In this document: positions 2,066 to 17,563 of the stretch, piece by piece
Position numbering within the stretch: the stretch's first letter is position 1
Layout: each line of letters begins with the position of its first letter
Origin: an uncultured Oscillospiraceae bacterium
Lineage (GTDB): Bacteria; Bacillota; Clostridia; Oscillospirales; Oscillospiraceae
Direction of reading: 5' to 3'
DNA length: 64,000 nt
NCBI GenBank assembly: GCA_947588955.1
Contig: CANPYX010000004.1
Span: 6,421-70,420, forward strand
Program-made: the position numbers and the translations under genes
The notes under the pieces: generated by a model
The model's database searches: none
Seen by the model: the letters and a program-made list of their open reading frames with translations, nothing else
What the model was told of the DNA's origin: nothing

Positions 2066-2908
2066 ATGGAATATAGGGGTTCATTCTTCGCGTCTACTCC
2101 TGCTACCGTTCGTCATGATAAAACTCTTCCGGGGGATGCCAAGCAGCTTTATACGGAAATTTCATCGCTTTGGAATGCGGAAGGGTATTGCTGGGCTACA
2201 AATTCATATTTTGCCGAGATTTTTGGAGTTTCAGAGCGGACAATAAGCCGATGGGTAGCGGCTCTTGAAAAAAGGGGGTATATCCGAACTGAGCAAGCCC
2301 CTTCCGGACGTGGCTCAGAGCGGCGCATCTTTATAGGCGTCTTATTCCCTGAATCTGAAGAGGTAGACAAAAATGTCGAGGTCGACAAAAGTGGCGAGGA
2401 GGAGGTAGACAAAAATGTCTATCTCCCGAAAGGTAATATATTAAATCTTAATAATAATAAACAAGAAATAGAAGAAAAAGAAATAAAAAAGAAAAAGAAA
2501 ACCGCGCCGAAGGAGCTGGACGAGGAAACCAAGGAGCTGCTCCGCGGGTATGTGGGCGACGACGGGGAGCTTCGGTTAAAGCTGGCGGACATGATAATTG
2601 CCCGCAATGAACGCGGCGCCGTCAACTCCCACAGGGCTGTCAAGGCACTGCTCAACCTGTTGGACAAGTATTCCGAGGGCAACAGGGCCCTCAAGCTGGA
2701 GCTGCTGGAAAGGGCAATCGCCAGCGGGTGGCAGACGGTATATCCCCTGAAACCGTGGGAGGCAGCGGCGATCCTGTCGGACATTGAAACCACGCCCGCA
2801 GGGTCAGGCCGATTCCAATCCGCGCAGGACAGCGGGGAGAGGATAATCCGGCCGGAGGATTCGCCGTGGTACCGGTACAAGAAGGAGCAGGAAAATGGCA
2901 AAGTCTGA
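2066..2908 (+). CDS. replication organizer-like protein with N-terminal HTH (DnaD/phage replisome organizer-like)
   Basis: NSYFAEIFGVSERTISRWVAALEKRGYI HTH. Sits directly upstream of a DnaB helicase. Contains iterons and an AT-rich tract. Confidence 0.6.
   Translation: MEYRGSFFASTPATVRHDKTLPGDAKQLYTEISSLWNAEGYCWATNSYFAEIFGVSERTISRWVAALEKRGYIRTEQAPSGRGSERRIFIGVLFPESEEVDKNVEVDKSGEEEVDKNVYLPKGNILNLNNNKQEIEEKEIKKKKKTAPKELDEETKELLRGYVGDDGELRLKLADMIIARNERGAVNSHRAVKALLNLLDKYSEGNRALKLELLERAIASGWQTVYPLKPWEAAAILSDIETTPAGSGRFQSAQDSGERIIRPEDSPWYRYKKEQENGKV
2360..2501. other. putative phage origin: three 18-bp iterons plus a ~70-bp AT-rich tract inside the organizer gene
   Basis: GAGGTAGACAAAAATGTC at 2360 and 2402, with degenerate GAGGTCGACAAAAGTGGC at 2378. 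A strongly AT-rich run at 2431-2501 in an otherwise GC-rich genome. Confidence 0.5.
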
Positions 2909-4277
2909 ATTCGGCGCGTCGGACATAGAGGCGGGGATCCTGGGCGGGATCCTGGTGTGGCCGGAGCACGCGGGCGAGGCGGTGTCGATGCTGAGCCCCG
3001 AGGATTTCGGCGACAGCGTCCACAGGCAGATATACGGCGTTATACTCTCCATGTACCTCAGCGATGAGCCCATAAACACCGTGACGGTCATGGAAAAGCT
3101 GGGACCTAAGGACCGGTGGGAGGACCGCCTGTTCGCCATCGTGGACAAGGGCAACGCCCAGGTAGGATATTACTGCCGGCTCATTTTGGAGCGGAACAAG
3201 CTGACGAAGGTTCAAACCCTGGCGCTTCACATCGCCCAGGCCGCCACGCTGGAGGAGGCGCAGCCGCTCATCAGCGAGCTCATCGGCATTGAGTGCAGCG
3301 TGCGGGGCTCCGAGCCCTCCACACTGCTGGAGCTGGTGCATGAGTACGTGGAGGACCGGCAAAAGGGCGTTCCACCGCCGGAATATCTGGATCTGGGCAT
3401 GGAGTTTTTGAACAAGACGCTGATGGTGGAGAGCGGAGACATGGTCCTCATCGGCGCGCAGCCCTCGGTGGGCAAGACGGCGCTGGCGCTTCGGCTGGCT
3501 ATGAAGGTCTCGGAGACGAAGCGCGTGGGCTTTTTCAGCCTGGAGACCGGGAAGAAAAAGCTCACCCACCGGTCGATATCCACTTACACCGGCGTCTCCC
3601 TTAAGGACATCAAACTGTGCAGGACGAGCGATTCGGACCTGTCGAAGATCGTCGGCATGGGCATGGAGCTGGGCAATTTGGAGAGGAAGGGATCCCTGTC
3701 CATCCACCGTATGCGCGGCGCCACAGTCAAGGACATCCAGGCGCTTACGCTGAGGTACCGGTACGAGGTCATTTTCGTGGACTACATACAGCTGATACGC
3801 TCCTACGGTCGGAGCCGGTACGAGGAGGTCACCAACATCTCCATGGATCTCCGAAACATCTCACCCAACGAGGGGCACGGAGTTACCATTTTCGCGTTGG
3901 CTCAGACGCACCGCTCCGAGAAGCTGAGCGGGAAGCCCATTCCTCCGGACCTGGACTCACTGAAGGAGAGCGGACAGCTGGAGGCGGACGCCGACGTGGT
4001 CATGCTCCTTTACCGGGCAAACGAGTCGGACAAATACTCGCCCAGGGTGTTGAAGGTCGCCAAGAACAAGGAGGGCGAGCTGGGGGAGTGTATGCTGGAC
4101 TTCGACGGCGCCTGCCAGAGGTTCACGGAGATGTCGCCGCAGCGCGTGGCGGCATGGAGGGAGATCAACGCCAAGTATGAGGCGAAAAAGAGAGCCGAGA
4201 AGAAGGCGGCAAAGGCCGGCGGCGACCAGATGGGAATGGTCGAGATAGTCGAGCCGGATCCCGATTTGCCGTTTTAA
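2895..4277 (+). CDS. dnaB: replicative DNA helicase (DnaB family)
   Basis: DnaB N-domain-like start (ILGGILVWPEHAGEAV). Walker A GAQPSVGKTALAL. RecA-like C-domain. Confidence 0.9.
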   Translation: MAKSEFGASDIEAGILGGILVWPEHAGEAVSMLSPEDFGDSVHRQIYGVILSMYLSDEPINTVTVMEKLGPKDRWEDRLFAIVDKGNAQVGYYCRLILERNKLTKVQTLALHIAQAATLEEAQPLISELIGIECSVRGSEPSTLLELVHEYVEDRQKGVPPPEYLDLGMEFLNKTLMVESGDMVLIGAQPSVGKTALALRLAMKVSETKRVGFFSLETGKKKLTHRSISTYTGVSLKDIKLCRTSDSDLSKIVGMGMELGNLERKGSLSIHRMRGATVKDIQALTLRYRYEVIFVDYIQLIRSYGRSRYEEVTNISMDLRNISPNEGHGVTIFALAQTHRSEKLSGKPIPPDLDSLKESGQLEADADVVMLLYRANESDKYSPRVLKVAKNKEGELGECMLDFDGACQRFTEMSPQRVAAWREINAKYEAKKRAEKKAAKAGGDQMGMVEIVEPDPDLPF

Positions 4278-4656: not shown

Positions 4657-5433
4657 ATGAGGACAATAGCGATCATGAATCTCAAGGGCGGGGTGGCAAA
4701 GACTACCACCACGGTGAACGTGGCGGCGATCCTCGCCCGGGACCACAAAAAGCGGGTGCTGGTGGTGGACGCCGACAGCCAGTGCAACACGACGGAATTT
4801 TTCGGCGCGGACCCAGAGTGCGGAAACCTGGCGCGGGCGCTGAAAAGCTCCTGGGGCGGGGAGCTCTTCGCGGTACAGCAGATACAGCGGACGGACCGGG
4901 ACGGAGTGGACATCCTGCCGGGGAGCGAGGAGCTCATGGACCTGGGGCTTTCGGGTGTGGAGGACAAGGCGGTGGACGCGGAGATCCTGCGGAAGCTGGT
5001 GCGCGAGCTGGAGGTTGTGGACAGATACGACTTCTGCCTCGTCGACTGCCCGCCGGCGTTCAACGCCGCCAGCGCCGCGGCGCTGCTGGCGGCAGGGGAG
5101 GTGCTTATACCCATAAAGCTGGACGCCTTCTCCCTTCGCGGCATGACCAACCTCATGCGGCAGATATACAACATGCAGGAGATAAACCCCGCACTGGAGC
5201 TTTTGGGCTTTTTGCCCACCATGTGGTACCCGTGCCGCTATACGCACGACGCCGAAGAAACGCTCCGGGACGGCGGGTATACGGTGCTCCCTCACATCCG
5301 GCGGACGGACAAGGCGGACGCCATGACCTTTGACCAGCGGCCGCTGATAGAGACGAGCCCCCGCTGTGCCGCGGCGGTGGATTACCGCCGGCTTGTGCGG
5401 GAGCTTTTGAAGGGAGGCGGCGGGAATGGCTGA
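4657..5433 (+). CDS. parA: ParA/Soj-family partition ATPase
   Basis: Deviant Walker A MNLKGGVAKTTTT. ParA-like length and motifs. GAGGAGG RBS. Confidence 0.9.
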   Translation: MRTIAIMNLKGGVAKTTTTVNVAAILARDHKKRVLVVDADSQCNTTEFFGADPECGNLARALKSSWGGELFAVQQIQRTDRDGVDILPGSEELMDLGLSGVEDKAVDAEILRKLVRELEVVDRYDFCLVDCPPAFNAASAAALLAAGEVLIPIKLDAFSLRGMTNLMRQIYNMQEINPALELLGFLPTMWYPCRYTHDAEETLRDGGYTVLPHIRRTDKADAMTFDQRPLIETSPRCAAAVDYRRLVRELLKGGGGNG

Positions 5434-7069
5434 GACGAAGGGCTTTAATCTCGCCAAGGCGCTGGGCAGCGTGTCCAAATCGGACACCGAGCGGATCGAG
5501 CGCATAGACATCGACCGGCTGGGCGACGACCCGAAAAATTTCTACTCCCTCTCGGACCTGGACTCCCTCGCGGAGAACATCGAGCTGGTGGGGCTCCAGC
5601 AGCCGTTGCGGGTCCGCCCCGACAGGGAGGCGCACGGGTATTACATAATCGTCTCAGGTCACCGGTGCCGGGCGGCGATCCAAAAGCTTGTGGACGACGG
5701 CAGGGAGGACCTGCGGCAGATCCCCTGCATCGTGGAGCAGCCGGCAGAGTCCGAGGCTATGCAGGAGCTTCGGCTCATCTTCGCCAATTCCGGCACCCGT
5801 AAGCTCACGGACCCGGAGATCGCCGCCCAAGCGGACAGGGTGCAGGAGCTCCTATACAGGCTCAAGGAGGAGGGCTACGATTTCCCCGGACGTATGCGGG
5901 ACCATGTGGCGGAGGCGTGCCAGGTGAGCCGGTCGAAGCTTGCGCGGCTAAAAGTTATCGAAATGGGCCTGCGTGGAGAACTGCACCAGCGGTGGCAGGA
6001 GGGCAAAATCAATGAGTCTGCCGCGTATGCCTTGGCGAGGATGCCGGAGGATATTCAACACCGTATCCTCACCGCCTGCCGCGGCAAGGTCCCGGACGGC
6101 AACACGCTGGAGCGGGTGGTCAAAGCCTATGATGGCGGTATGCGGTGGGGGACCGATGGCGGGCTTACATGCCCTGACGGGAAAGCCTGCACTTACGCCA
6201 ACGGTTTCCTCCGGACTTTCATTGATTCCCCCTGGCGAGAGTGTGACGGGTCCCGGTGCTGTATCACCTGCCGCTATGGACCTCGCGGAGATTACAACTC
6301 CTGCGACCGGATGTGCTCAAAAGCAAAGGCTGTCCGAAAAGACATGATAAAAAAGGAAAGGTCCAAAGAGAAGCGCGCGCAGGAAAAACGGACAACCGCG
6401 GCGCAGCGGGGCACAGTCCCCAACGCCCGCAGGGTCCTGAGAGCCATAGACGCGGCGGGGCTCGCGGATGATGTACGGATACCGTGGGTGTATAGCAATC
6501 AGTTTCCGGTGTCGGTCATTCGCAAGTGGGCGGACGGCGACTTTTCCGAGGGCTGGTACGATCATTACATATCTCCTCTTCTCGGCGTGGAATCCCTTAG
6601 CCGTGCGCTTGATGCGGCAAAGCTCCTCAAGTGCTCCGCCGACTATCTGCTGGGGCTCACCGATGAGCTCCACCCGGTCGGCGCGCCGACGGGGTATGTC
6701 ACGGACCGGGACCCGGACGGACCGACTGAGGCGATGGTGCTGATGGATTTCCATCTCAACAGACCTTACCGCACCACGGCGGAGTGGGACGGGCAGGCGT
6801 GGCTGTCCGGCGGACAAGTCCTGCCAGACATGGTGCTTGGCTGGTACCCGATCCCAAAGACACCGGACATACCGGAGGAGCCGGAGGAAACGGACTCCGA
6901 TGTCCCTGAAGACATCAACGATTACGGCTTGTGCTCCACCGGATTTTCTCCCACCGGTGCGTGCGGCGCCGCGGCAGCCTGCGGCGAGATATATAACTGC
7001 TGCTCCCAATGTGATGCGGACTGCAATACCAGATGCGGGTGGATCCCCGAGGAGGAAAAACATGAGTAA
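5426..7069 (+). CDS. parB: ParB/Srx-domain protein with long Cys-rich C-terminal extension
   Basis: ParB N-domain motifs GLQQPLRVRP and IIVSGHRCRAA. Overlaps the parA stop. C-terminal half has an XRE-like ADYLLGLTDE segment and Cys clusters. Confidence 0.8.
   Translation: MAETKGFNLAKALGSVSKSDTERIERIDIDRLGDDPKNFYSLSDLDSLAENIELVGLQQPLRVRPDREAHGYYIIVSGHRCRAAIQKLVDDGREDLRQIPCIVEQPAESEAMQELRLIFANSGTRKLTDPEIAAQADRVQELLYRLKEEGYDFPGRMRDHVAEACQVSRSKLARLKVIEMGLRGELHQRWQEGKINESAAYALARMPEDIQHRILTACRGKVPDGNTLERVVKAYDGGMRWGTDGGLTCPDGKACTYANGFLRTFIDSPWRECDGSRCCITCRYGPRGDYNSCDRMCSKAKAVRKDMIKKERSKEKRAQEKRTTAAQRGTVPNARRVLRAIDAAGLADDVRIPWVYSNQFPVSVIRKWADGDFSEGWYDHYISPLLGVESLSRALDAAKLLKCSADYLLGLTDELHPVGAPTGYVTDRDPDGPTEAMVLMDFHLNRPYRTTAEWDGQAWLSGGQVLPDMVLGWYPIPKTPDIPEEPEETDSDVPEDINDYGLCSTGFSPTGACGAAAACGEIYNCCSQCDADCNTRCGWIPEEEKHE
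5471..5487. repeat. 17-bp palindrome family, degenerate copy GTGTCCAAATCGGACAC
   Basis: Read directly. Lies 45 nt into parB, in frame as VSKSDT. Confidence 0.85.
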
Positions 7070-8283: not shown

Positions 8284-9080
8284 GGATTTTGCCGATACTT
8301 TTCAACACCGAGATGGTCCGGGCGCTGCTGGAGGGGCGGAAGACGGTGACGCGACGGGTGATAAGATATACCGCCGGCGATGTATATAAAGCCGCGTGTT
8401 TTGAGGGAAGATGGGTCGAGGGGATGAACCACGATGACCCACCCCCAAGCGTGGTCGAATGGTACTGTAAGAATTATAAAAGCCCTCCATACGAGCCCGG
8501 AGATATTCTGTACGTCAGGGAGACGTGGAGAATTCGGTCAGCGCACCGCTTTGAGGCGGACGCTAAAATTGAGTATAAGGCCGGCGGTCCAATCACAACT
8601 GTCCAATTCCCCGGAAGATGCAGTGATTCCCATGTTAGAAAAGAGTATGACGACTTTATAAATAAGTGGATGGCTGATCCTGAATGGCGGCCCTCCATCC
8701 ATATGCCGAAGGAGGCCGCACGGATTTTTCTCCGGGTCAAGGCTGTGCGGGTGGAGCGGTTGCAGGACAGCTTCTTCGCACCCATAAGCCCGATTTTTGC
8801 AATGCAGGCAGAGGGAATGGACATAGGAGACTACTGCCGAGAGTGCATAGCGACTTACGGGAATCCGTGCTGCGTCGACACTGTCGATGAGGATGGATCA
8901 AAATTATACGGCGGCGAATGCGGAATACTTGATGAAGTCAGGGAAAATTATGCCGAGCTTTGGGATAGTACCGCCAAAAAAGCGGACCGGGACAAGTACG
9001 GCTGGCGCGCCGACCCCTGGGTGTGGGTCATTGAGTTTGAGCGGGTGGAGAACCCGGAGCTTTTGGAGGTGAGGAAATGA
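8280..9080 (+). CDS. ASCH-like domain phage protein (tentative)
   Basis: ATGA-coupled start at 8280. N-terminus ILPILFNTEMVRALLEGRKTVTRR resembles the ASCH-type motif. Confidence 0.45.
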   Translation: MRILPILFNTEMVRALLEGRKTVTRRVIRYTAGDVYKAACFEGRWVEGMNHDDPPPSVVEWYCKNYKSPPYEPGDILYVRETWRIRSAHRFEADAKIEYKAGGPITTVQFPGRCSDSHVRKEYDDFINKWMADPEWRPSIHMPKEAARIFLRVKAVRVERLQDSFFAPISPIFAMQAEGMDIGDYCRECIATYGNPCCVDTVDEDGSKLYGGECGILDEVRENYAELWDSTAKKADRDKYGWRADPWVWVIEFERVENPELLEVRK

Positions 9081-9703
9081 AATTCTGGGACCCGGCGACG
9101 GGGAAAGTGTTCAAGAACATCTGTGAAGCGAGGGGAAAATTTTGCTTATCTGGCAACAAATGCTCGACCTGTGAGTTCGAAAATTGCGTGAAATTCTCGC
9201 AGGAGCACCCCGCCGAAGCCGCCCGCTTGATGGGCTACGAGGTAATTGAGGATACACCAACTAAGGAGGACGACATGGATAAACAGGAAAAGCCCTTGAG
9301 CGAGTGGACGCTCCGGGAAGCGAAACGGTACTGTGTTGCTTTTAGAGAGACGGTAGACGATAGTGACGTTTGCGAGGAGACGGATGGATGCGTCCTCCGG
9401 GAGAAGGGTATCTGCAAGAAGGCCAATAGGTGGCCTCACCTGTGGGACCTGAACAGCCTCACGGAGCCGGAAATCGCCATCATGCAGGCGATGGGGGCAA
9501 AGTGGGTGAGCAGGGATGAGAACCGCTACGACGGGAGCGTTGACCTTTGGATGGAGAAGCCTTTGTATGGCGATGGTATGTATAACAATACCTGTGAAAA
9601 CGGGCTGGCAGCTACTATTCATAATTCGGCTCTTTTCACCTCCGTCCACCCCGGCGAGTGTATAGAAGTTGAGGAATGTATGGGGGCGGGGGATGGACAG
9701 TGA
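9077..9703 (+). CDS. hypothetical phage protein
   Basis: ATGA-coupled ORF with an N-terminal CxxC. Confidence 0.5.
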   Translation: MKFWDPATGKVFKNICEARGKFCLSGNKCSTCEFENCVKFSQEHPAEAARLMGYEVIEDTPTKEDDMDKQEKPLSEWTLREAKRYCVAFRETVDDSDVCEETDGCVLREKGICKKANRWPHLWDLNSLTEPEIAIMQAMGAKWVSRDENRYDGSVDLWMEKPLYGDGMYNNTCENGLAATIHNSALFTSVHPGECIEVEECMGAGDGQ

Positions 9704-10151
9704 ATTTTGCGGCGGGTGCGTTTACAAGCGAGGGTTCGGGGCGGACGCGTCCTGCGACTACATAGGGGTCACCGGAAGACCGCGTCCGTGTCCGGGCGGG
9801 CGCGGGTGTACGGTGAAGACTTTGGAAGGAGATGAAGCGAAAATGCCGAGGCAGGTGACATTTGACGAGGAGAGGGCGCTGGCATTGCACGGCGAGGGCA
9901 GGTCCGACGGGGAGATCGCCGACGCCGTGGGCGCCTCCCGCACCGCCATATCATCGTGGCGGAACAGGAGGGGGCTCGCGCGGAACATGCCGCCGCTGAA
10001 ATCGGGCACGCGCCCGGAGGTGACGGTGGAGATACCTCCGGGACTGCGAAGCGCCGCCCGGAGGGAGGCGCCATCCGGTTCCGGCGGGAAGGACGAGACG
10101 AATACAGATAATTCCAGCGGGGGGGGTAGGCGAGATGGCAGCGCCGCATAG
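9693..10151 (+). CDS. phage protein with Cys-rich N-terminus and HTH
   Basis: CGGCVYK..C..C..C cluster, then RSDGEIADAVGASRTAISSWRNRRGL HTH. Start chosen at the ATG overlapping the upstream stop. Confidence 0.5.
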   Translation: MDSEFCGGCVYKRGFGADASCDYIGVTGRPRPCPGGRGCTVKTLEGDEAKMPRQVTFDEERALALHGEGRSDGEIADAVGASRTAISSWRNRRGLARNMPPLKSGTRPEVTVEIPPGLRSAARREAPSGSGGKDETNTDNSSGGGRRDGSAA

Positions 10152-10431
10152 TATTACAAGCTCCGGCTCCTTGCCGCCTCCGCCGGCTCCTGAGCATACC
10201 GCGCCGGCTCCGAAGCCAAAGAAGACGCCGGCGAAGAGAAGCCCGGAGGGGAGCCTGGAGGCGCTTCGCCGACTGTTAAAGGCTGCCGGGGCGGTGACGC
10301 TGGAGCTCAACGTCGGGAGCTGCAGCGTCCGTGTCCAGGCGGAGAGTCTGGAGCAGCTGGGCGCCGTCGCCGGATTCCTGGGCGCCATCACCGGCGTGTC
10401 CGATTCGGACACGGGAGGCGGCGTGAGATGA
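10135..10431 (+). CDS. hypothetical phage protein
   Basis: Operon-style overlaps. Carries a palindrome copy near its 3' end. Confidence 0.4.
   Translation: MAAPHSITSSGSLPPPPAPEHTAPAPKPKKTPAKRSPEGSLEALRRLLKAAGAVTLELNVGSCSVRVQAESLEQLGAVAGFLGAITGVSDSDTGGGVR
10396..10412. repeat. 17-bp palindrome GTGTCCGATTCGGACAC (perfect)
   Basis: Read directly; in frame as VSDSDT. Confidence 0.9.
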
Positions 10432-10613
10432 AGACCGCGGCATCCGGTCACGGTCGGCTCATCGACGCGGGGGCGCTGGCGGAGAGGATCCGGGCGCTTG
10501 AATATCTCAGCCGGCGGGACAAGGAGCTTTTTATCTCCGAGGTGCTGGCGGAGCCGGCGGTGGAGACGCGGGAGCCCGCGCCGGGGAAGACGGGAAAAAA
10601 GAAAAAATCGTGA
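10428..10613 (+). CDS. hypothetical phage protein
   Basis: ATGA-coupled small ORF. Confidence 0.4.
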   Translation: MKTAASGHGRLIDAGALAERIRALEYLSRRDKELFISEVLAEPAVETREPAPGKTGKKKKS

Positions 10614-10632
10614 GAGGCGAGAGACCTGAAGT

Positions 10633-10669
10633 CCACAGCCCGATTTTCGAAGGGAGAATTGGGCTGTGG
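10633..10669 (+). other. hairpin CCACAGCCC-N19-GGGCTGTGG overlapping the Rep-like gene start
   Basis: 9-bp perfect stem. The left arm and flank, GAAGTCCACAGCCC, recur at 11652-11665 (GAAGCCCACAGCCC). Confidence 0.7.
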
Positions 10670-11412
10670 CAAAATTCAGAAAAATAGTTGAGGCGGGACC
10701 GCTGGTGGTGGAGACCATATATCCGGCGCCGAATCCCAGGGACACGCCGGAGGTCAGGGCCGGGAAGAAGCGGCTCAGCTCCCAGGCGCAGCAGCGGATG
10801 AATCAGATCTACGCCTGGCAGAAGCTTGAGCTCCTCATCGCCGCCAACTTCCGTCAGCGGGACCTGTGGGTGACGCTCACCTATGACGACGGGCACCTTC
10901 CGGGGAGCCGCGGAGAGGCGGTGCGGCGGTTCAACGCTTTTATCCGACGGCTGCGAAAGGCGCGCGGACGGCATGGGCAGGTGCTCAGGTACATATACTG
11001 CACCGAGGGCAGACACGGCGACGGGCGATTCCACCACCACCTGCTCATCAACGCCACAGGCGACGACTTCCGGCAGCTCGCCGGACTCTGGGGCAACGGG
11101 CAGGTGGACATCAGGCGGTTCCGCGTCGACAAGGAGAAGAACTACGAGACGCTTGCCAAGTACATGTGCAAGGAGCAGCGGGACAAGCCGGGGCAACGGC
11201 TCTGGTCGGGGTCGAAGAACCTGGCGCGGCCGCGGGCGGAGTGCTTCAGGGTGCCGGACGACACGCCGCTGGATATGCCCAGGGGCGCCACGCCGTTGGC
11301 GGAGGCCAGCGAGCGGAACAGCTACGGGGTATTCAAATATATAAAATATCTCATGCCCGGATGGGAGCACGGTGCCGCCGCGCCCAGATCCAGGCGGAGG
11401 CGGAAAAAATAA
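10666..11412 (+). CDS. HUH-superfamily rolling-circle Rep-like protein
   Basis: HUH-like GRFHHHLLIN and Tyr motif NYETLAKYMCKE, comparable to the YxxKY motif of phiX/Microviridae-type Reps. GTG start. Confidence 0.6.
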   Translation: MAKFRKIVEAGPLVVETIYPAPNPRDTPEVRAGKKRLSSQAQQRMNQIYAWQKLELLIAANFRQRDLWVTLTYDDGHLPGSRGEAVRRFNAFIRRLRKARGRHGQVLRYIYCTEGRHGDGRFHHHLLINATGDDFRQLAGLWGNGQVDIRRFRVDKEKNYETLAKYMCKEQRDKPGQRLWSGSKNLARPRAECFRVPDDTPLDMPRGATPLAEASERNSYGVFKYIKYLMPGWEHGAAAPRSRRRRKK

Positions 11413-11478
11413 AAGACGGCTTTTTATTTTTTCTGACTTGGGGGGTATATTAACTTTTGGGAAAGATGGTGAAAAGGG

Positions 11479-11670
11479 TTGCAAACTACGGAAAAACGTG
11501 ATACACTACGGATAGAGAACGGTTGGCTCGTTTGCGAGTGCGGCGCCCGGCTCCTCAGGGTGGACCCGGACACATCGGCGGCAAACCTTGAGGTCTACTG
11601 CCGAAGGTGCAAGCGTAAGCGAAAGGTGAATATCTCCAGAGGCGAGAGGCTTGAAGCCCACAGCCCATGA
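11479..11670 (+). CDS. cysteine-rich KTR-like zinc-ribbon protein
   Basis: CECG...CRRCKRK pairs (CxC-x24-CxxC). TTG start. Confidence 0.5.
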   Translation: MQTTEKRDTLRIENGWLVCECGARLLRVDPDTSAANLEVYCRRCKRKRKVNISRGERLEAHSP

Positions 11671-11708
11671 CTACGCAGAACGCGTAATCATCGGCTGTGG
11701 GCTTTTTT
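11656..11708 (+). terminator. long hairpin plus T-tract (intrinsic terminator-like)
   Basis: GCCCACAGCC ... GGCTGTGGGC followed by TTTTTT. Inner TACGC/GCGTA pairing. Confidence 0.65.
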
Positions 11709-12036
11709 GTTTGCGGCGAAGGGGGTAAGCGGAATCGGCTTTTACGACAGCCGCGCATGGCGTAAGCTGCGCCGTGAGGTGATGGCGTATGACAACAACG
11801 AGTGCCAGTATTGCAAGGCTCGGCACCGCCACACGCGCGGGGAGCTGGTGCATCATGAGTTCCACCTGGATACGTACCCGCAGTACGGTCTGATGATGTG
11901 GGTCGAGGATCCTGCGACTGGTGAGCTGAAGCGTAACCTGGTGACGGTGTGCAAGGCGTGTCATGAGACGGTTTGCCACCCGGAGCGGGTGCGGAAGTTT
12001 GAGTGCAAGGTGCCGCTGACGCCGGAACGGTGGTGA
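11707..12036 (+). CDS. HNH endonuclease (phage packaging-associated)
   Basis: ECQYCK...HH...CKACH HNH/zinc motif. Position immediately upstream of the terminase genes. Confidence 0.85.
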   Translation: MFAAKGVSGIGFYDSRAWRKLRREVMAYDNNECQYCKARHRHTRGELVHHEFHLDTYPQYGLMMWVEDPATGELKRNLVTVCKACHETVCHPERVRKFECKVPLTPERW

Positions 12037-12144
12037 TACACCCCCCGGGTGCGAGAATCGCGTTTTAACCCACCGCGGCCCACTCGGTGCATGCCCAAGA
12101 CAAGAGAGGGCGGGACGCGGATGCGCGGTGCGGGAGACGTGCGC

Positions 12145-12192
12145 GGGCGCGAACGGGGGCGCGAACGGGGGCGCGAACGGGGGCGCGAACGG
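12145..12192. repeat. 4 x 12-bp perfect tandem repeat GGGCGCGAACGG
   Basis: Read directly. Lies between the HNH and TerS genes. Confidence 0.9.
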
Positions 12193-12203
12193 GCGCATAA
12201 TGC

Positions 12204-12932
12204 GTGAGCGTGACGCGGGAAAATGCTTTTTCGGGAGGTAGTTCGATGTGCTTTTGTGCAGACAACGGAGAAAGGACGGCGGAGACCAGGGTGCGCGGTC
12301 CGGATCGGGCTGAGGCGAGCGCGGATCTCCGATCCTGCGGGGCGGAGACCGGTGAGCGGGTGACGGCGGAAGATATTCGCGTGGCGGAAGGCGGAGCCGG
12401 GGCGCTGGCTGGCGGGGAGCCGGCGGGCGCGAAAGGCGGACCGGCGGATGGAGAGGCTGAGAACGGCGCTGCGGGCGCGGAAGGCGGAGCCGGGGCATTG
12501 GATGACGGAGAGACGCCGGGCGCGGATGAACGGGAGCCGGTGGGAGCTGATGAAGGTGGGGAGCTGGGGAAGAAAAAACGGGAGAAGAGGACGAAGGCTG
12601 AGAAAAAGCCGGGGTCCGCCTCCCGACCGTCCGAGGCGGACATCCGGCTCGCGCTAAAGTCGCAGCTCTCCGCCAAGGGTCTCACCGCCGGCCATTACAC
12701 GGATATGCTTGAGGACTACATGAGCCTGTATAGGACAAAAAAAGCCCTCATCTCGGACATCAGGTCACGCGGGACGAAGGTGATGGTCTATATGGCAAAC
12801 GGCACCGGCAACCTGAAGACCAACGACTCCGTGGCGGATCTGCTGAAAGTCAACGGGCAAATGCTCCGTATCCTGGATACGCTGGGGATCTCGGCGGAGG
12901 GCGGAGCGTACCTGTGCGACGACCGTCTCTGA
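12204..12932 (+). CDS. terminase small subunit (P27-like), start uncertain
   Basis: C-terminal half YTDMLEDYMSLYRTKKALISDIRSRG...NDSVADLLKVNGQMLRILDTLG resembles P27-family TerS. N-terminal ~120 aa is low-complexity Gly/Ala/Glu. Confidence 0.65.
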   Translation: MSVTRENAFSGGSSMCFCADNGERTAETRVRGPDRAEASADLRSCGAETGERVTAEDIRVAEGGAGALAGGEPAGAKGGPADGEAENGAAGAEGGAGALDDGETPGADEREPVGADEGGELGKKKREKRTKAEKKPGSASRPSEADIRLALKSQLSAKGLTAGHYTDMLEDYMSLYRTKKALISDIRSRGTKVMVYMANGTGNLKTNDSVADLLKVNGQMLRILDTLGISAEGGAYLCDDRL

Positions 12933-12944
12933 TCTTTGCCGGAG

Positions 12945-12961
12945 GTGTCCGATTCGGACAC
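12945..12961. repeat. 17-bp palindrome GTGTCCGATTCGGACAC (perfect)
   Basis: Read directly. Intergenic, 13 nt after the TerS stop. Confidence 0.9.
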
Positions 12962-13257
12962 AAATCAAACGGCCCTTTCTCCCGGCACTGCCGGGTGATG
13001 GGCGTCTCGGCGACGGGCTTCTGCCTCTTTTCCCGCCGCCGTGACGATAGATGCGCTGCCAGCGCGGCGATATGACGCGCAGTACCGCGGAACACAAGTT
13101 AGGCAAATCGCTATGTTCCGAAAATTTGCCGGCGGGGGAGGGACCCGCACAGCGCCAGTCGAGCCATGTTTCCGGTTATGGGCGGATGTCAGCGGCAACC
13201 GGTGGCGGCCCGGAAAGACGGGCAATATGTCGATTCGGCTCAGAGGTGAGAGTTGGG

Positions 13258-14913
13258 ATGGAGACGGGGTGCGGGTATATTGACGGGTACGCGGAGAAGC
13301 TGAGGAGCGGGGAGGTGCCGGCGAGCAGGGAGATGCTCCAGGCGATGGACCTCATAGAGCGCAGGCTTTCGGAGCCGGGCGTCACGGTGGACGCCGCCAG
13401 GACGGAGCGGGCGCGGGAGCTCATCGAAAAATACTTCCGCATGGAGCTTTTGGATTGGGAGCTCTTTGTCCTGGCTCTGGTACACTGCTACTACCCCGAC
13501 GACACCCTGGTATTTACGGAATTTCTCATCGTCATGGGCCGCGGGAACGGAAAAAACGGGTTTATCTCGGCTCTTGCATGGTACCTCACCACCCCGGACC
13601 ACGGCATAAACGGGTACAACGTGGACATAATCGCCAACAGCGAGGAGCAGGCGAGGACGTCCTTCGACGACGTATATGAGATGCTGGGGGACAACTGGGG
13701 CAAGCTCCAGGGGTTTTACAGCCGGACGAAGGAGGAGATCGTTTCCCTCAGGACCAGAAGCTACATCCGGTTCAACACCTCCAATGCCCGCACAAAGGAC
13801 GGCAAACGCTCCGCCTGCCTCATCTTCGACGAGGAGCATGAGTACGAATCCGACGAGAACATCAGGGTGTTCCGGTCGGGCTTCGGAAAACGGCGCCACT
13901 GCCGGATATTCAAGATAACCACCAACGGGTACGTGCGCGACGGCGTGCTGGACAGCGATCTCGCCCTGGCAAAATCCGTGCTGGACGGGGAGGTACCCGA
14001 TAGCCGCATGTGTCCGCTCATCTACAAGGTGGACGGCGAGGAAGATGTGCAAAACCCGAAAACGTGGGTGAAGGCAAACCCGTCGCTGCCGTATTTCCCC
14101 ACGCTCCGGGTGGAGATGGCGCAGGAGTTTTCGGAGCTGCCCCACTCAAAGACAGTGGAGCTGGATTTTTATACAAAGCGCATGAACCTGCCGCGCTCGG
14201 ACATGGAGATAGCGGTGACGGATTGGGCGAACATCATCGCCACCAAATCACCCATTCCCCAGGGGCTTGCCGGGCTTGTATGCACCGTGGGCATAGATTA
14301 CGCCTCCATGCGGGACTTCGCCTCGGTGGACTTCCACTTCCGCGTGGGAGACGATCGCTTTGACTTCGGGCACTCCTGGCTGTGCCTCAGGTCCCCGGAC
14401 CTGTCCAGGATCAAGGCGCCGTGGAGGGAGTGGGCCGACAGGGGGCTGCTGACGCCGGTGGACGACGCGGAGATCTCGCCGTATCTGCTGACGAATTATA
14501 TAGCCCTCACCGCTGCCGATTATTTCGTCACAAAAATCGCCCTGGACAACTTCAGGTACGCGCTGATGAAGAACGCCCTCCGGGACATAGGCTTTGACCC
14601 GAAGGCGGGGAACGTGTACCTGGTCCGTCCCTCGGACATAATGAAGGTCCAGCCGGTAATAGACAGCTGCTTCAACAAGCGGCTCTTCACCTGGGGCGAA
14701 AATCCCCTCCTGCGCTGGGCCACCAATAACACGAAGCTGGTGCGCTCAGGACGGCGGGAGGGGACTGACACGGGGAATTATTATTACGCAAAAATCGAGG
14801 GCAAGAGCAGGAAGACCGACCCCTTTATGGCGCTGGCCGCGGCGATGTGCATAGAGGAGGAAAATGAGGGCTTTGTCGGCGGCGCGCCGGACATGAGCGT
14901 CATATCGGCTTAA
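13258..14913 (+). CDS. terminase large subunit
   Basis: Terminase_1-like Walker A region MGRGNGKNGFISAL and acidic IFDEEHE motif. Start taken at ATG 13258 (GAGGTGAG upstream). Confidence 0.9.
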   Translation: METGCGYIDGYAEKLRSGEVPASREMLQAMDLIERRLSEPGVTVDAARTERARELIEKYFRMELLDWELFVLALVHCYYPDDTLVFTEFLIVMGRGNGKNGFISALAWYLTTPDHGINGYNVDIIANSEEQARTSFDDVYEMLGDNWGKLQGFYSRTKEEIVSLRTRSYIRFNTSNARTKDGKRSACLIFDEEHEYESDENIRVFRSGFGKRRHCRIFKITTNGYVRDGVLDSDLALAKSVLDGEVPDSRMCPLIYKVDGEEDVQNPKTWVKANPSLPYFPTLRVEMAQEFSELPHSKTVELDFYTKRMNLPRSDMEIAVTDWANIIATKSPIPQGLAGLVCTVGIDYASMRDFASVDFHFRVGDDRFDFGHSWLCLRSPDLSRIKAPWREWADRGLLTPVDDAEISPYLLTNYIALTAADYFVTKIALDNFRYALMKNALRDIGFDPKAGNVYLVRPSDIMKVQPVIDSCFNKRLFTWGENPLLRWATNNTKLVRSGRREGTDTGNYYYAKIEGKSRKTDPFMALAAAMCIEEENEGFVGGAPDMSVISA

Positions 14914-15128
14914 CCGCCGGACTGATCCTTGGGCTTGCGCCAGTTTTTGTACTCGCCCGTGGTGACGCGGGCGTCCGCGGGCCAGGGAGCGCCGGCGGGG
15001 ATCACCCACTGCTTTCCGATTTTTACGGCGCCGGGGATCCTGCCGTCGGCAAGGAGCCTGCGGAGCCTGCCGGTGTCCTTCCCGTGCTTCGCCGCGTACT
15101 CGGAGGCGGAGAGATATTCACCTTCCAC
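14910..15128 (-). CDS. excisionase-family/MerR-like HTH DNA-binding protein (reverse-strand moron)
   Basis: LSASEYAAKHGKDTGRLRRLLADGRIPGAVKIGKQWVIP. GTG start. Convergent 4-nt overlap with the TerL stop. Confidence 0.6.
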   Translation of the reverse strand: MEGEYLSASEYAAKHGKDTGRLRRLLADGRIPGAVKIGKQWVIPAGAPWPADARVTTGEYKNWRKPKDQSGG

Positions 15129-15291
15129 GTCTGCTTTTCACCTCCTTCACCACATCAAGCACCAGGACGCAGCCTGTAAGCCCCGCCGTCACCCAATAGG
15201 GCCAGGTGAAGCCGTGGAGAACGCAATAGACTGTGTTCGTGGCAAAAATGATGTAAATTACCGCACTTTTTGATGAAAACATCTTGCGCAT
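15118..15291 (-). CDS. small membrane protein (57 aa, below ORF-track cutoff)
   Basis: Manual translation: MRKMFSSKSAVIYIIFATNTVYCVLHGFTWPYWVTAGLTGCVLVLDVVKEVKSRRGR. Two hydrophobic spans. Overlaps the downstream HTH gene start. Confidence 0.4.
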   Translation of the reverse strand: MRKMFSSKSAVIYIIFATNTVYCVLHGFTWPYWVTAGLTGCVLVLDVVKEVKSRRGR

Positions 15292-15312
15292 TTCATGCCG
15301 GCGCGTTATAAT
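15284..15312 (+). promoter_or_regulatory. candidate antisense promoter TTGCGC-17-TATAAT
   Basis: Hexamers at 15284-15289 and 15307-15312. Would transcribe antisense to the 41-codon ORF. Confidence 0.3.
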
Positions 15313-15349
15313 ATTGTCAGGGTCGGGGGAGGTTTCCCTCCCCCTCCTG

Positions 15350-15475
15350 TCAGCCCTTGAGAATCGTGTAGATGACGAAGACTATATCGGCAATTCCGGC
15401 GAGAATCGTTATAATAGCTTGCGCATCGTTTAAGCGATTTCTTTGGGGCTTTTTCTTTTTACGCGTCGTTATCAC
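15350..15475 (-). CDS. possible 41-codon hydrophobic peptide (start codon unclear)
   Basis: Manual translation: (V)ITTRKKKKPQRNRLNDAQAIITILAGIADIVFVIYTILKG. AAGGAGG immediately abuts the GTG, so initiation is uncertain. Confidence 0.2.
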   Translation of the reverse strand: MITTRKKKKPQRNRLNDAQAIITILAGIADIVFVIYTILKG

Positions 15476-15489
15476 CTCCTTACAAGTAC

Positions 15490-15518
15490 ATAATAACACG
15501 ATGTCGTGAATTTGTCAA
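15490..15518 (-). promoter_or_regulatory. near-consensus sigma-A-type promoter TTGACA-17-TATTAT driving the reverse-strand cassette
   Basis: On the - strand: TTGACA (15518-15513), 17-nt spacer, TATTAT (15495-15490). A/T tract upstream. Confidence 0.6.
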
Positions 15519-15573
15519 GAGGTTTTTTGAAAAAAATCAAAAAAAATTTTTAGAGCCGAGAGTCATTAAGACC

Positions 15574-15623
15574 ACAGGCCTGATACCGGACGGAAGGTCC
15601 GGGGTCAGGCCTGTTTTTCTTTT
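15574..15623 (+). terminator. intrinsic terminator-like hairpin plus T-run just upstream of the portal gene
   Basis: ACAGGCCTGATACCGG...CCGGGGTCAGGCCTGT followed by TTTTTCTTTT. Confidence 0.65.
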
Positions 15624-15630
15624 AGGGGGG

Positions 15631-16800
15631 TTGTCAGTGGCGTTTGAGTTTTTTAAGCGGCTGTTCAGCGGAGGGGACAAGCCCGAGGCGGTGACGGCGG
15701 AGGAGTTTTTTGACCTCTATTCGGACACGTATATCCGGGAGCTCGCCTTCCACGCCTGCGTCAGCTTCATCGCCAACGCCGTCTCAAAGTGCGAGTTCAA
15801 GACCTACCGCGAGGGACAGCCGGTGAAGGGACCGGAATATTACCTTTGGAACGTGGAGCCGAACCAGAACCAGTGCAGCTCCGCCTTCTTCCACTCGCTG
15901 CTCCTGCGGCTCTACCGGGACAACGAGGCGTTGGTGGTGGAGCACAACTCCCGCCTTTACGTCGCCGACAGCTACGACAGGGAGGAGTACACGCTGTACC
16001 CCGACCTCTTCAGGCAGGTGACGGTGGGGAGCTTCACCTTCTCCCGCACCTTTGGAGGCGATGAGGTGATGTACTTTAGGCTCAACGACCAGGACGTCAA
16101 CCGTATACTCCGGGGGCTTTACACCTCCTACAGCAAGCTCATCACCTACGGCATGAAGGCGTACCAGCAGTCGCGGGGCACAAAGGGCACGCTGGAGCTG
16201 GACATGACCATGCGGGGGACCAAGGATTTCAACGACCGCTTCAACGCCATAAGGAATGAGGACTTCCGAAAATTCGTGGAGGCGGATAACGGGATCCTGC
16301 CCCTGTTCAAGGGGATGAAATTTCAGGAGCTTGCCCACAAGACCTACACCAGCGACACCACCAGGGACATCCGCGCTCTCATCGACGACGTGACGGATTT
16401 CACCGCCAGGGGCTTTGGGATCCCCGCGCAAATAGTCAACGGCACCGTCCAGGACGTCGATTCGGCGGTGGAGCAAGCACTGACCTTCTGCGTCGACCCG
16501 CTGGCGGACATGCTGCAGGAGGAGATCAACCGCAAGAGGTACGGGCGGGACGCCTACCTCAAGGGAAATTACATCGCCATCGACACCGGCGCCATAAAGC
16601 ACGTCAACGTTCTGGACGTCGCCGCCGATGTGGATAAGCTGGTATCCTCCGGCGTCATGTGCGTCAACGACGTCCGCGGGATACTGGGTATGCCGCTCAT
16701 AAACGAGCCCTGGGCCTGGGCGCACTTTATGACAAAGAATTACGCCGATATTGAGAAGCTTCTCGAGGCAATGAAGGGAGGTGAAACGAAAGATGAGTGA
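15631..16800 (+). CDS. phage portal protein (HK97 family)
   Basis: Size, position after TerL, and portal-like sequence. TTG/GTG start. Confidence 0.85.
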   Translation: MSVAFEFFKRLFSGGDKPEAVTAEEFFDLYSDTYIRELAFHACVSFIANAVSKCEFKTYREGQPVKGPEYYLWNVEPNQNQCSSAFFHSLLLRLYRDNEALVVEHNSRLYVADSYDREEYTLYPDLFRQVTVGSFTFSRTFGGDEVMYFRLNDQDVNRILRGLYTSYSKLITYGMKAYQQSRGTKGTLELDMTMRGTKDFNDRFNAIRNEDFRKFVEADNGILPLFKGMKFQELAHKTYTSDTTRDIRALIDDVTDFTARGFGIPAQIVNGTVQDVDSAVEQALTFCVDPLADMLQEEINRKRYGRDAYLKGNYIAIDTGAIKHVNVLDVAADVDKLVSSGVMCVNDVRGILGMPLINEPWAWAHFMTKNYADIEKLLEAMKGGETKDE

Positions 16801-17563
16801 CAGCGGAAGACCCGCCCGTTACTGGAGCATGGTTCAGGACGCCGGCTCCAGGGAGGCGGACATATACATCTTCGGGGATATAACCTCCTGGCCGTGGCTG
16901 GAGAGCGACGTGTCGAGCTACGGGCTCGCCTCCGAGATCCAGAGGATCGACGCCGACGAGATACGCGTACACATCAACAGCTACGGCGGCGAGGTCGCCG
17001 AGGGCCTTGCCATCATGAACACGCTGATGAGCCACCCGGCGCACGTCACCACCATCGTGGACGGCTTCGCGTGCAGCGCCGCCAGCGTCATCCTGATGGC
17101 GGGGGAGCGGAGGATAGCCCAAAGCTGCTCAAACGTCCTGGTCCACCACGCCAGCACCTTCATCGCCGGCAACGCCGCGCGGCTGCGCGCCGAGGCGGAG
17201 GACCTGGACACCATAACGGAGCAGTCGGTGACCGCCTATGTCTCCAGGACCGGCAGGAGCCGGGAGGAAATCGTGGCGCTCATGGACGAGGACAGGTTCA
17301 TGGGACCGGAGGAGGCGCTTGAATGGGGCTTCGTCACGGAGATCCGCGACCTTTTCGGCAGGGACTCTCCCACCCAGTCCGTGAGGGAGACGGTTGCGAG
17401 GCTCCTCACCGCCGGAGGGCGGCGGGGTCCCGGAGCGCCCGGGGAGAAGGAGAGCGTGTCCAAACCGGACACGCCACAGGAGAAGGAGGGTGTGTCCGAA
17501 TCGGACACGCCGTGGAAAACAGCGACAGCGCAATTCCTTGACGCGCTGAGCGTCAAAAAATGA
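16781..17563 (+). CDS. prohead maturation protease (ClpP family)
   Basis: INSYGGEVAEGLAIMNTLMSH...GFACSAASVILMAG ClpP-like motifs. An alternative ATG at 16793 overlaps the portal stop. Confidence 0.9.
   Translation: MKRKMSDSGRPARYWSMVQDAGSREADIYIFGDITSWPWLESDVSSYGLASEIQRIDADEIRVHINSYGGEVAEGLAIMNTLMSHPAHVTTIVDGFACSAASVILMAGERRIAQSCSNVLVHHASTFIAGNAARLRAEAEDLDTITEQSVTAYVSRTGRSREEIVALMDEDRFMGPEEALEWGFVTEIRDLFGRDSPTQSVRETVARLLTAGGRRGPGAPGEKESVSKPDTPQEKEGVSESDTPWKTATAQFLDALSVKK
17456..17472. repeat. 17-bp palindrome family, degenerate copy GTGTCCAAACCGGACAC
   Basis: Read directly. In the protease C-terminal tail (VSKPDT). Confidence 0.8.
17492..17508. repeat. 17-bp palindrome GTGTCCGAATCGGACAC (perfect)
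   Basis: Read directly. In the protease C-terminal tail (VSESDT), 36 nt after the previous copy. Confidence 0.9.

Follow-up and report, generated by a model that had tools for sequence, protein, structure and literature searches.

Hairpins around a rolling-circle Rep gene in a gut-phage lineage are probably copies of an RNA control signal associated with a small zinc-ribbon protein

Introduction

The window analysed here is a stretch of 64,000 nucleotides (nt) from an uncultured Oscillospiraceae bacterium (GenBank assembly GCA_947588955.1, contig CANPYX010000004.1, positions 6,421 to 70,420 of the forward strand). It carries genes of a temperate phage, among which lies a unit of about 1.07 kb composed of a gene for a replication initiator (Rep) of the HUH type, a gene for a small zinc-ribbon protein that we call KTR, and two related hairpins that bracket the gene pair. 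An earlier note on this DNA had proposed that the hairpins might be a pair of origin and termination sites for Rep, or the subterminal hairpins of an element mobilised by an HUH protein. Here, we present evidence that the hairpins around Rep are probably two of three copies of an RNA control signal and not the ends of a jumping element. The repeated signal consists of a box, AGAGsCGAGAG, followed by a covarying mini-hairpin of three base pairs (P1) and a long hairpin (P2). The unit and the three occurrences of the signal contain the following features.

10613-10669, plus strand: site 1 of the signal, with box AGAGGCGAGAG (10613-10623), P1 (10623-10625 paired with 10631-10633, loop CUGAA) and P2 (10633-10648 paired with 10654-10669)
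10666-11412, plus strand: gene for the HUH rolling-circle Rep, 248 amino acids, GTG start, related to PF23343 and phrog_3584, with three motifs
11421-11454, plus strand: candidate nick site or double-strand origin in an AT-rich spacer, with a T-run, CTGACTTG (11433-11440) and TATATTAAC (11446-11454)
11479-11670, plus strand: gene for the KTR zinc ribbon, 63 amino acids, with cysteines C19, C21, C41 and C44 and a basic KRKRK tail
11638-11710, plus strand: site 2, with box (11638-11648), P1 (11648-11650 paired with 11656-11658, loop UUGAA) and a terminator P2 (11654-11676 paired with 11682-11704) followed by a U-run
15552-15619, plus strand: site 3, with box AGAGCCGAGAG, P1 (15562-15564 paired with 15570-15572, loop AUUAA) and a terminator P2 (15574-15614) followed by a U-run

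Results

The signal occurs at three sites

At site 1, the long hairpin holds the Shine-Dalgarno sequence of Rep (AAGGGAG) in its loop and the GTG start codon (10666-10668) in its 3′ arm. At site 2, the last 11 codons of KTR form the box, P1 and the 5′ arm of P2; the KTR stop codon (11668-11670) lies within P2, the 3′ half of P1 being shared with the base of P2. Directly 3′ of site 3 are the ribosome-binding site and start (15631) of the portal gene. The first hairpin folds with its flanks at a minimum free energy of −35.9 kcal/mol (z −8.1 against shuffled sequences), and the second, which is followed by TTTTTTG, has a z of −7.3 against shuffled sequences. Sites 2 and 3 have the form of intrinsic terminators, a GC-rich stem with a U-run on the sense strand, and site 1 lacks the U-run. 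The rule on loop size in a simple consensus terminator scan had excluded the hairpins of sites 2 and 3, and a custom scan recovered both.

The 5′ flank and arm common to the two hairpins around Rep and KTR read TGAAGTCCACAGCCC at 10627-10641 and TGAAGCCCACAGCCC at 11652-11666. The earlier note was right that these parts are nearly identical, and the likeness goes beyond the 14-mers that it had listed, with 26 of 29 positions matching over the stretch AGAGGCGAGAGaCcTGAAGtCCACAGCCC (AGAGGCGAGAGnCnTGAAGnCCACAGCCC), inside a 45-nt repeat of 78% identity at a spacing of 1025 nt; its start coordinates, however, were one base off, and it had missed the third copy. A degenerate 28-mer, with up to three mismatches allowed, found three matches in the 2.56-Mb genome that holds the window, all on one strand and within 5 kb, whereas the reversed control found none. 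The repetition of the site is thus more than chance.

Three sites are found in all six prophages of the clade: one before Rep, one at the KTR stop codon, and one ahead of the portal operon, 3′ of TerL or of an inserted gene. The layout of site 1, in which P1 is followed by a P2 that has GTG in the 3′ arm and the Shine-Dalgarno sequence in the loop, is kept in the six prophages and in four further loci (L067, L092, L160 and L169), and the P2 arms show compensatory changes (CCACAGCCC/GGGCTGTGG vs CCACGGCCC/GGGCCGTGG). In one prophage (G325), a fourth site lies behind an inserted gene resembling homing endonucleases, just before TerL. Related proteins with the motif LIDLTGQR[FI]G, of 270 and 215 amino acids and likewise homing-endonuclease-like, are encoded by genes inserted in the packaging operon at L089 10066-10878 (G325:C125) and L060 12702-13349 (G313:C12), and each of these genes overlaps or directly precedes its own copy of box, P1 and terminator. 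At the left junction of site 1 (10428-10613 in the window, and the equivalents in L035, L037, L038 and L052), the stop codon of an unrelated upstream open reading frame (ORF) abuts the first base of the box (...TCGTGA|GAGG; ...AATAG|AGAGG), which suggests that a precise junction is selected for, or that the site is coupled to the termination of translation.

The signal appears to be under selection as a single-strand structure

An ungapped alignment of 22 sites showed the box, (A)GAGsCGrGAG, then G-N-Y, a loop of five nucleotides and R-N′-C, then the 5′ arm of the long hairpin. The P1 positions can pair in all 66 of 66 cells. The pair between columns 12 and 20 occurs as CG, UA, GC and AU, that is, in all four Watson-Crick types, and the pair between columns 13 and 19 as CG, UA and AU. 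Cells in which both bases had changed numbered 20, compared with 5.0 in shuffled alignments (none of 500 shuffles reached 20), and the covariation of P1 was 0.81, compared with at most 0.21 for slid partners; these scores are to be read with the caveat that the helix was defined from the same sequences that were later used to score it. Loci that were anchored outside the P1 columns (types A and C) all gave Watson-Crick P1 stems, and the type B phages, among them the isolated Flavonifractor phage Cormatin, have an equivalent stem of 3-4 base pairs with a loop of 4-6 nt. In minimum-energy folds the 3′ half of P1 doubles as the bottom of P2, so that P1 and the base of P2 are mutually exclusive.

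Two further observations bear on the level at which the signal is conserved. Among the long hairpins, the sense strand folds better in 25 of 29 (mean ΔΔG −7 kcal/mol; 117 G·U pairs vs 16), which indicates that the structure belongs to one strand, either RNA or the plus strand of DNA, and is not a cruciform. Secondly, the box of site 2 is translated in different frames of KTR, as RGERLEAHSP in the window and EARALEATAQ in L058, and the box is non-coding at sites 1 and 3; its conservation is, therefore, at the nucleic-acid level. A search of positions 9000-17000 against Rfam 15 (E ≤ 5) returned microRNA noise and no matching family.

One could envision that the sites work as DNA on which Rep acts, either as a double-strand origin with termination or secondary sites, or as priming hairpins similar to single-strand origins on the displaced plus strand. 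A folded displaced plus strand would also account for the strand specificity, Rep looks catalytically competent, and the homology block of the unit is bounded by sites 1 and 2. Moreover, a hairpin together with direct repeats (iterons) makes up the origin of many HUH Reps, as is established for CRESS-DNA viruses and rolling-circle plasmids. However, the P2 loops differ completely among the sites and contain no conserved nick motif, the U-runs of sites 2 and 3 lie exactly before the ribosome-binding site of the next gene, a separate and widely conserved CTTG motif resembling those of phiX174 and pC194 adjoins Rep, and a box with terminator also follows KTR genes that have no Rep beside them. 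We consider a role as Rep sites quite unlikely, and the presence of the signal without Rep, together with a better origin candidate inside the unit, speaks against the origin and termination pair of the earlier note.

The signal follows KTR

A covariance model of box and P1 (R1) was run on 38 genomes of the genus, 8 with Rep-KTR and 30 Rep-less, and on 836 kb of IMG/VR sequence. It matched exactly the 8 genomes with Rep-KTR, always on the contig and strand of Rep, and had no match in the other 30. There were three sites per prophage, with six in G313, which has two prophages, four in G325, and one weak match each in the most divergent genomes, G294 and G303. All 56 matches in the IMG/VR loci were on the Rep strand, most of them at the 3′ end of KTR, with a few at site 1 and two or more at positions further downstream. 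A self-match with the 29-mer, intended to find extra sites in the IMG/VR loci, did barely better on the plus strand (best score 22) than on the minus strand (19), and gave clear extra sites in only a few loci (L092, L160, L169 and L136). The box type varies by lineage and agrees within a phage: L077 has GAGCCTGAGCC... at both terminators, and L052 and L060 have GCGGGAGTCC at both ends. Such agreement between the sites of one phage is expected for a trans-acting factor that co-evolves with them.

KTR genes without Rep provided the means to tell which protein the signal accompanies. In the Rep-less KTR loci L172, L174, L177 and L178, the 3′ end of KTR is a GAG/GCC-rich box followed by a terminator and the next ribosome-binding site. 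The gene order is KTR, membrane protein, TerL in L174; KTR and membrane protein, after which the contig ends, in L177; and TerS, KTR, capsid genes, TerL in L178. The signal thus goes with KTR and not with Rep, because KTR genes lacking Rep still end in box and terminator. In L174 (G125:C54) and L177 (G211:C184), the Rep-less KTR gene heads a cluster in which a membrane protein of about 100 amino acids comes next and which adjoins host transporter genes; such a cluster may represent a defective prophage, or else resemble a gene-transfer agent with the regulator as its first gene.

The association extends beyond phages. KTR relatives of the canonical PF14205 (Cys_rich_KTR) type are found outside phages in many genera (L181-L204), and 23 of these 24 genes end in AAAGAGCCAGACGCAmAGACGCAGAGCC and a hairpin, nearly always with a T-run. 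In its extended form the motif continues as (G/A)ATAA before a hairpin of variable loop. This nucleotide motif is retained where the ORF stops early, for example 16 nt sooner (L184, L200, L201 and L203), and the end of the Pfam model of PF14205, KEPDAKTQSR, may reflect a constraint on RNA rather than on protein. The neighbours of canonical PF14205 genes include ABC transporters, BlaI/BlaR-like pairs and serine recombinases.

These data also bear on the possibility that the sites are ordinary cis signals that need no dedicated trans-acting factor, sites 2 and 3 being leaky or translation-coupled terminators, site 1 a coupling hairpin, and box with P1 a patch for mosaic recombination. Terminators commonly overlap stop codons, stop codons of upstream ORFs abut or overlap the elements here, and the mosaic boundaries described below fall at the sites. 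On the other hand, the compensatory changes in P1 suggest that its structure is selected for, boxes at distant sites of a single phage co-vary in sequence, the element is restricted to genomes that carry KTR, and the family-wide conservation of nucleotides runs past early stop codons. For these reasons we regard purely passive signals as unlikely.

KTR is a small zinc ribbon

The earlier note was correct in placing a KTR zinc-ribbon gene next to Rep, in the form of a Cys-rich ORF of 63 codons. The KTR of the window scored 19.9 bits against PF14205, under the cut-off of 25.5, and matched profile positions 3-42 only. All of the 18 aligned KTR relatives from equivalent loci, however, match PF14205 at E ≤ 0.01 (best E 1.4e-13), and, among the matches listed, nearly all of the 120 database relatives of KTR carry this family. 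On these sequence comparisons, the ORF is a zinc ribbon that appears to belong to a divergent Cys_rich_KTR subfamily. Its four cysteines are invariant in the aligned relatives, the first knuckle being CxC and not CxxC, and an AlphaFold2 model of KTR is an all-beta ribbon with a predicted local distance difference test (pLDDT) score of 72. The sequence of KTR found nothing below E 0.1 in the PDB, and matched phrog_6417, annotated "translational regulator", at only E 0.043. None of the database sources attached a name to KTR-type proteins. PF14205 is present in 87 of 301 sampled genomes of the bacterial family.

Rep is an intact-looking HUH initiator

That the 248-amino-acid ORF resembles rolling-circle initiators was borne out by profile searches. 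Rep scored 59.4 bits against Pfam PF23343 (REP_ORF2-G2P; curated cut-off 27.8) and matched phrog_3584 "replication initiation protein" over residues 3-214 (E 1.2e-56), and all three motifs are conserved. These are, in order, TLTY at 70-73 (motif 1, uTLT), RFHHHLLIN at 121-129 with R121-x-H123-H124-H125 as the HUH motif, and YETLAKYMCKE at 160-170 with Y160...A164-x-Y166-x-x-K169-E170 as motif 3, which includes the catalytic tyrosine. Among 16 aligned homologues T72, E114, R121, H123, H125, Y166, K169 and E170 are invariant, and in an alignment of 26 homologues H123, H125, Y166, K169 and E170 are at least 95% conserved. Because the rolling-circle motifs are conserved across these alignments, Rep looks like an active HUH enzyme, and we take the ORF to be a genuine, catalytically intact-looking HUH Rep. 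In tblastn searches it was 25-35% identical to the annotated initiators of Clostridium phages PhiS63 and phiSM101, Flavonifractor phage Cormatin, Butyrivibrio and Latilactobacillus phages, and many Microviridae. Relatives of Rep are found in 68 of the 301 family genomes and on at least 499 IMG/VR contigs. The matches in Pfam and PHROG were to Rep families only, and to no Y1/Y2 transposase family.

The AT-rich spacer between Rep and KTR offers a candidate for the site at which Rep might nick. The motif found there across loci is a T-run, C(T/A)G(A/C)CTTG, 6-8 nt, and (G)TATAT(T/C); in L065 it reads TCTTGATAG, and it is also present in islands that resemble satellites. A loose form of the pattern occurs near the Rep stop codon in 21 of 26 loci, 15-50 nt 3′ of the stop in 17 of them, compared with a background of 0.08 per 200 nt. 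The motif resembles the phiX174 origin CAACTTG|ATATTAATAAC and the pC194 nick region TTCTTATCTTGATAATAAGGG. We tentatively put forward the CTTG...TATATTA spacer, rather than the hairpins, as the better candidate for the Rep origin, a suggestion drawn from motif comparison. The spacer was also considered as a sigma-70 promoter, which is unlikely, given that CTTG is 6-8 nt from TATATT and the conserved bases would land in the promoter spacer.

The unit occupies a fixed position between early and late genes

The genes that surround the unit in the window are as follows.

1997-2908: DnaD/O-like protein, theta-type module
2895-4277: DnaB, theta-type module
4657-5433: ParA, theta-type module
5426-7069: ParB, theta-type module
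11707-12036, plus strand: HNH, the first gene 3′ of the terminator of site 2
12204-12932, plus strand: TerS, 3′ of the same terminator
13051-14913, plus strand: TerL, 3′ of the same terminator

As noted earlier, then, the phage carries a theta-type module (DnaD/O-like protein, DnaB, ParA and ParB) in addition to Rep. No promoter-like site was found between the terminator of site 2 and HNH, and the sole promoter-like site among HNH, TerS and TerL lies within TerL (13253-13281). Sites for a DNA-binding activator of the phage P2 Ogr type were considered and dropped, since the space before HNH is too small for a promoter; also considered and dropped were an integron attC-like site and a cos or TerS-binding site. 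Between TerL and site 3 is a minus-strand cassette (14910-15499) encoding a 72-amino-acid protein that resembles helix-turn-helix (HTH) or excisionase proteins and two small hydrophobic peptides; the relatives are without this cassette, and in them site 3 comes soon after TerL.

We compared 105 related loci drawn from genomes and IMG/VR, and examined the context of 26 loci of the same bacterial family, the window included. In most of the 105 loci, and in Cormatin, Rep-KTR is flanked by the DnaB/ParB genes on one side and by HNH/terminase on the other. In the 26 family loci, DnaB and/or ParB is upstream of Rep in about 19, TerL is detectable downstream in about 14, and a KTR-like zinc-ribbon ORF is 3′ of Rep in at least 23; in most of the latter the KTR stop codon is inside a strong hairpin with a T-run, and in most of them the conserved ribosome-binding site and start of HNH (GGAGGTGAtAGCC) come next. 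A blastn search with positions 9000-13500 gave no match among 50,697 phage records. DNA homology to five other prophages of the genus (69-77% identity) begins at 10612-10614 and stops at 11707-11722, with unrelated left flanks, and a sixth prophage, 97% identical, diverges directly after the second hairpin.

The sharp edges of this homology are compatible with the unit being a present or recently mobile, or hitchhiking, Rep-KTR cassette, which would excise by way of its 29-nt direct repeats as a circle of 1025 bp and integrate into phage genomes at terminator-like sites, with site 3 as an empty target or a footprint. In keeping with such a cassette, the flanking repeats match at 26 of 29 positions, the repeats mark the exact limits of homology to the five prophages, changes in the left copy go along with changes in the right copy of the same element, and the Rep-KTR pair also resides in a satellite-like island of 7.6 kb. 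Yet the genome has one Rep and one KTR; the position is constant in most of the 26 loci and in Cormatin; no solo or empty site was found in the 30 Rep-less genomes of the genus or in the prophages L054-L056, which have a similar HNH-TerS and no Rep; site 3 is kept at the TerL/portal junction in all six clade relatives; the left copy is wholly absent from most lineages; and the protein belongs with Rep families and not with Y1 transposases. We consider the cassette very unlikely. Because extra copies and solo sites are lacking, we reject a freely moving element, and because the unit keeps to one junction in most of the loci examined and the search for empty or solo sites found none, we read its edges as mosaic recombination at conserved signals. 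The unit is, in our view, a fixed module of a temperate siphophage lineage, located at the junction of early (DnaD/DnaB/ParAB) and late (HNH-TerS-TerL-portal) genes.

This outcome weighs against both mobile proposals of the earlier note, the autonomous or hitchhiking element and the HUH-mobilised element with subterminal hairpins. The note had itself held that a unit always found in the same phage context, with no independent copies, would speak against them, and what other genomes show comes close to that: mostly the same junction and no solo or extra copies, small islands excepted. Its suggestion of a second replication or packaging-initiation device before HNH-terminase fares better, although not with the hairpins as the sites of that device. 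A second, rolling-circle initiation device is plausible because an intact-looking Rep adjoins a complete theta module just before HNH-terminase.

The small islands are the exceptions to the fixed position of Rep-KTR. In L070 (5577-13280; G183:C57), a 7.6-kb island is integrated at a tRNA-Leu gene, and part of the tRNA is repeated at the opposite end of the island. Its genes code for a tyrosine integrase, an HTH repressor, two versions of Rep (one short, one full), a KTR of 93 amino acids, and a fusion of prohead protease and major capsid protein (PF04586 and PF05065), and the island has the appearance of a phage satellite that forms capsids and uses this Rep to replicate. No clear instance of box, P1 and P2 was seen in the L070 island. 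Its Rep is probably the only replication initiator there, which supports a true replication role for Rep. Tandem Rep copies are also present in L069, L072 and L080, and L069 and L080 lie near tRNA clusters. In PhiS63 (L062, 5986-6947), Rep and a 72-amino-acid ORF are in the middle of the early region and not beside terminase, which indicates that the position at the late junction is not universal for the Rep family.

Discussion

The unit would, on the interpretation that we propose, hold two separate devices, a rolling-circle initiator and an RNA switch. Rep would be an HUH nickase of the phiX174/pC194 type that nicks the spacer CTGACTTG...TATATTAAC just past its own stop codon, and the nick would start a sigma-mode rolling-circle fork that runs rightwards into the packaging genes and complements the theta module. 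KTR would bind the box and P1 (three base pairs with a pentaloop) in the sense-strand RNA, and the binding would stabilise P1 and so weaken the mutually exclusive base of P2. At site 1, where P2 would hide the GTG of Rep, KTR would free the start codon and allow Rep translation, in the manner of Com acting on mom. At sites 2 and 3, KTR would remove the base of the terminator next to the U-run, so that transcription could continue into HNH-TerS-TerL and, beyond these, into the portal and head genes. KTR would be made first, during early transcription, and would go on to release Rep and the packaging and head genes at the same time; because it would be translated from the early transcript independently of Rep, KTR would act as a timer. 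The sequence comparisons show the layout of the three sites, the covariation of P1, folding specific to one strand, the presence of the signal alongside KTR and its independence of Rep; that KTR binds RNA, that it causes antitermination, and where Rep has its origin are what we infer here. On balance, and by analogy with phage Mu, we favour with modest confidence the proposal that KTR is a Com-like RNA binder that opens the hairpins, turning on Rep translation and late-gene read-through.

Several points weigh against this proposal. P1 is only three base pairs long and was derived from the sequences on which it was tested. The similarity of KTR to Mu Com is weak (hhalign probability 58.9%, E 9.4e-5, 32 columns, with both zinc knuckles aligned), no match to Pfam Com was found among the 18 KTR relatives scanned at E ≤ 0.01, and a Foldseek comparison of the AlphaFold2 model with the PDB gave nothing below E 1, the fold being a generic zinc ribbon. 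The ligand of a zinc ribbon might be single-stranded DNA and not RNA. In the phages, Rep and KTR occur in tight linkage, which leaves Rep as a possible co-factor. At site 2, a ribosome finishing KTR might alone disturb the terminator. Sites 1 and 3 are found in some lineages only, whereas site 2 is widespread. Lastly, the CTTG motif has an insert of 6-8 nt relative to the phiX174 and pC194 sites and might be a promoter element.

The closest parallel is the Com/mom system of phage Mu. Mu Com is a zinc finger of about 62 amino acids that binds a short hairpin beside a "translation inhibition structure" (TIS), the stem of which contains the GUG start of mom; binding of Com melts the TIS, and the RNA motif obtained by selection is a repeated GAG(N)2CC (PMC6483171). 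The two systems share a small four-Cys zinc protein, a short hairpin 5′ of a start-codon hairpin (site 1) and a recognition sequence rich in GAG and CC. Unlike in Mu, the regulator gene here is downstream of the regulated gene, two of three targets are terminators and not start-codon traps, the sequence similarity is marginal, the host is a Gram-positive anaerobe, and the target of KTR is a predicted one.

The lambda N/nut system (boxA and boxB) and other phage antitermination systems also combine a single-stranded box with a small hairpin that has a purine-rich pentaloop, and they serve to pass terminators between temporal classes of genes. In contrast to nut, each terminator here has its own box and P1, which adjoin and overlap the terminator stem; this suggests local remodelling of a hairpin and not a processive change of RNA polymerase. 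The KTR system has no similarity to N, Q or a Nus-binding boxA. An RNA similar to HK022 put was considered and dropped, P2 being itself a terminator.

As for Rep, likeness to the HUH initiators phiX174 gpA, phage P2 gpA and the pC194 family lies in motifs 1-3, including AKY..K, in a distant kinship by tblastn to the Reps of Microviridae, and in a T-rich candidate nick region with CTTG beside the gene. That a tailed phage can rely on an HUH Rep is known from phage P2. These Reps differ from the one described here in that the latter resides in a temperate siphophage of about 36 kb with a full DnaD/DnaB/ParAB module, and the candidate nick motif, unlike that of phiX174 and pC194, has 6-8 nt between CTTG and ATATTA. 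Cormatin (ON453905) has a similar order of ParA ... Rep, a small "translational regulator", HNH, TerS, TerL and portal. The small gene, annotated thus by the authors of that genome, is homologous to KTR, and its 3′ end has a box and hairpin of the GCGCCTGAGCC type; in PhiS63, Rep is likewise followed by an ORF of 72 amino acids. Rep identity to Cormatin and PhiS63/phiSM101 is only about 31-35%, and the Cormatin and PhiS63 records do not annotate the cis elements. An HUH gene bracketed by hairpins with common conserved 5′ flanks recalls the IS200/IS605, IS91/ISCR and Helitron elements, from which the present unit differs in its single copy, fixed context, lack of target-site variation and Rep-family protein, and in a hairpin signal that also occurs without an HUH gene. 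Our literature searches found no description of a signal system of KTR, box and Rep.

It is quite possible, although we would stop short of calling it probable, that PF14205 proteins form a widespread but unrecognised class of small regulators that bind RNA in Clostridia, that the gene of each carries its own target in the form of a conserved 3′ box and terminator, and that in one large lineage of gut phages the target has spread to several sites, through which a single zinc ribbon would time Rep translation and read-through into packaging and head genes. PF14205, a family of unknown function, thereby gains a concrete, testable role and a defined candidate RNA target. If the proposal is true, conserved 3′ RNA elements would make the C-terminus of KTR look more conserved as protein than it is. 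The locus also serves as a caution that hairpins around an HUH gene are not to be taken for transposon ends. The presence of a rolling-circle Rep beside a full theta module would be explained, because the two modes of replication would be activated at different times. To our knowledge, late-gene switching in temperate phages of gut Clostridia is largely unknown, and a Com-like switch that acts locally on both antitermination and translation would join the known timing devices of phages.

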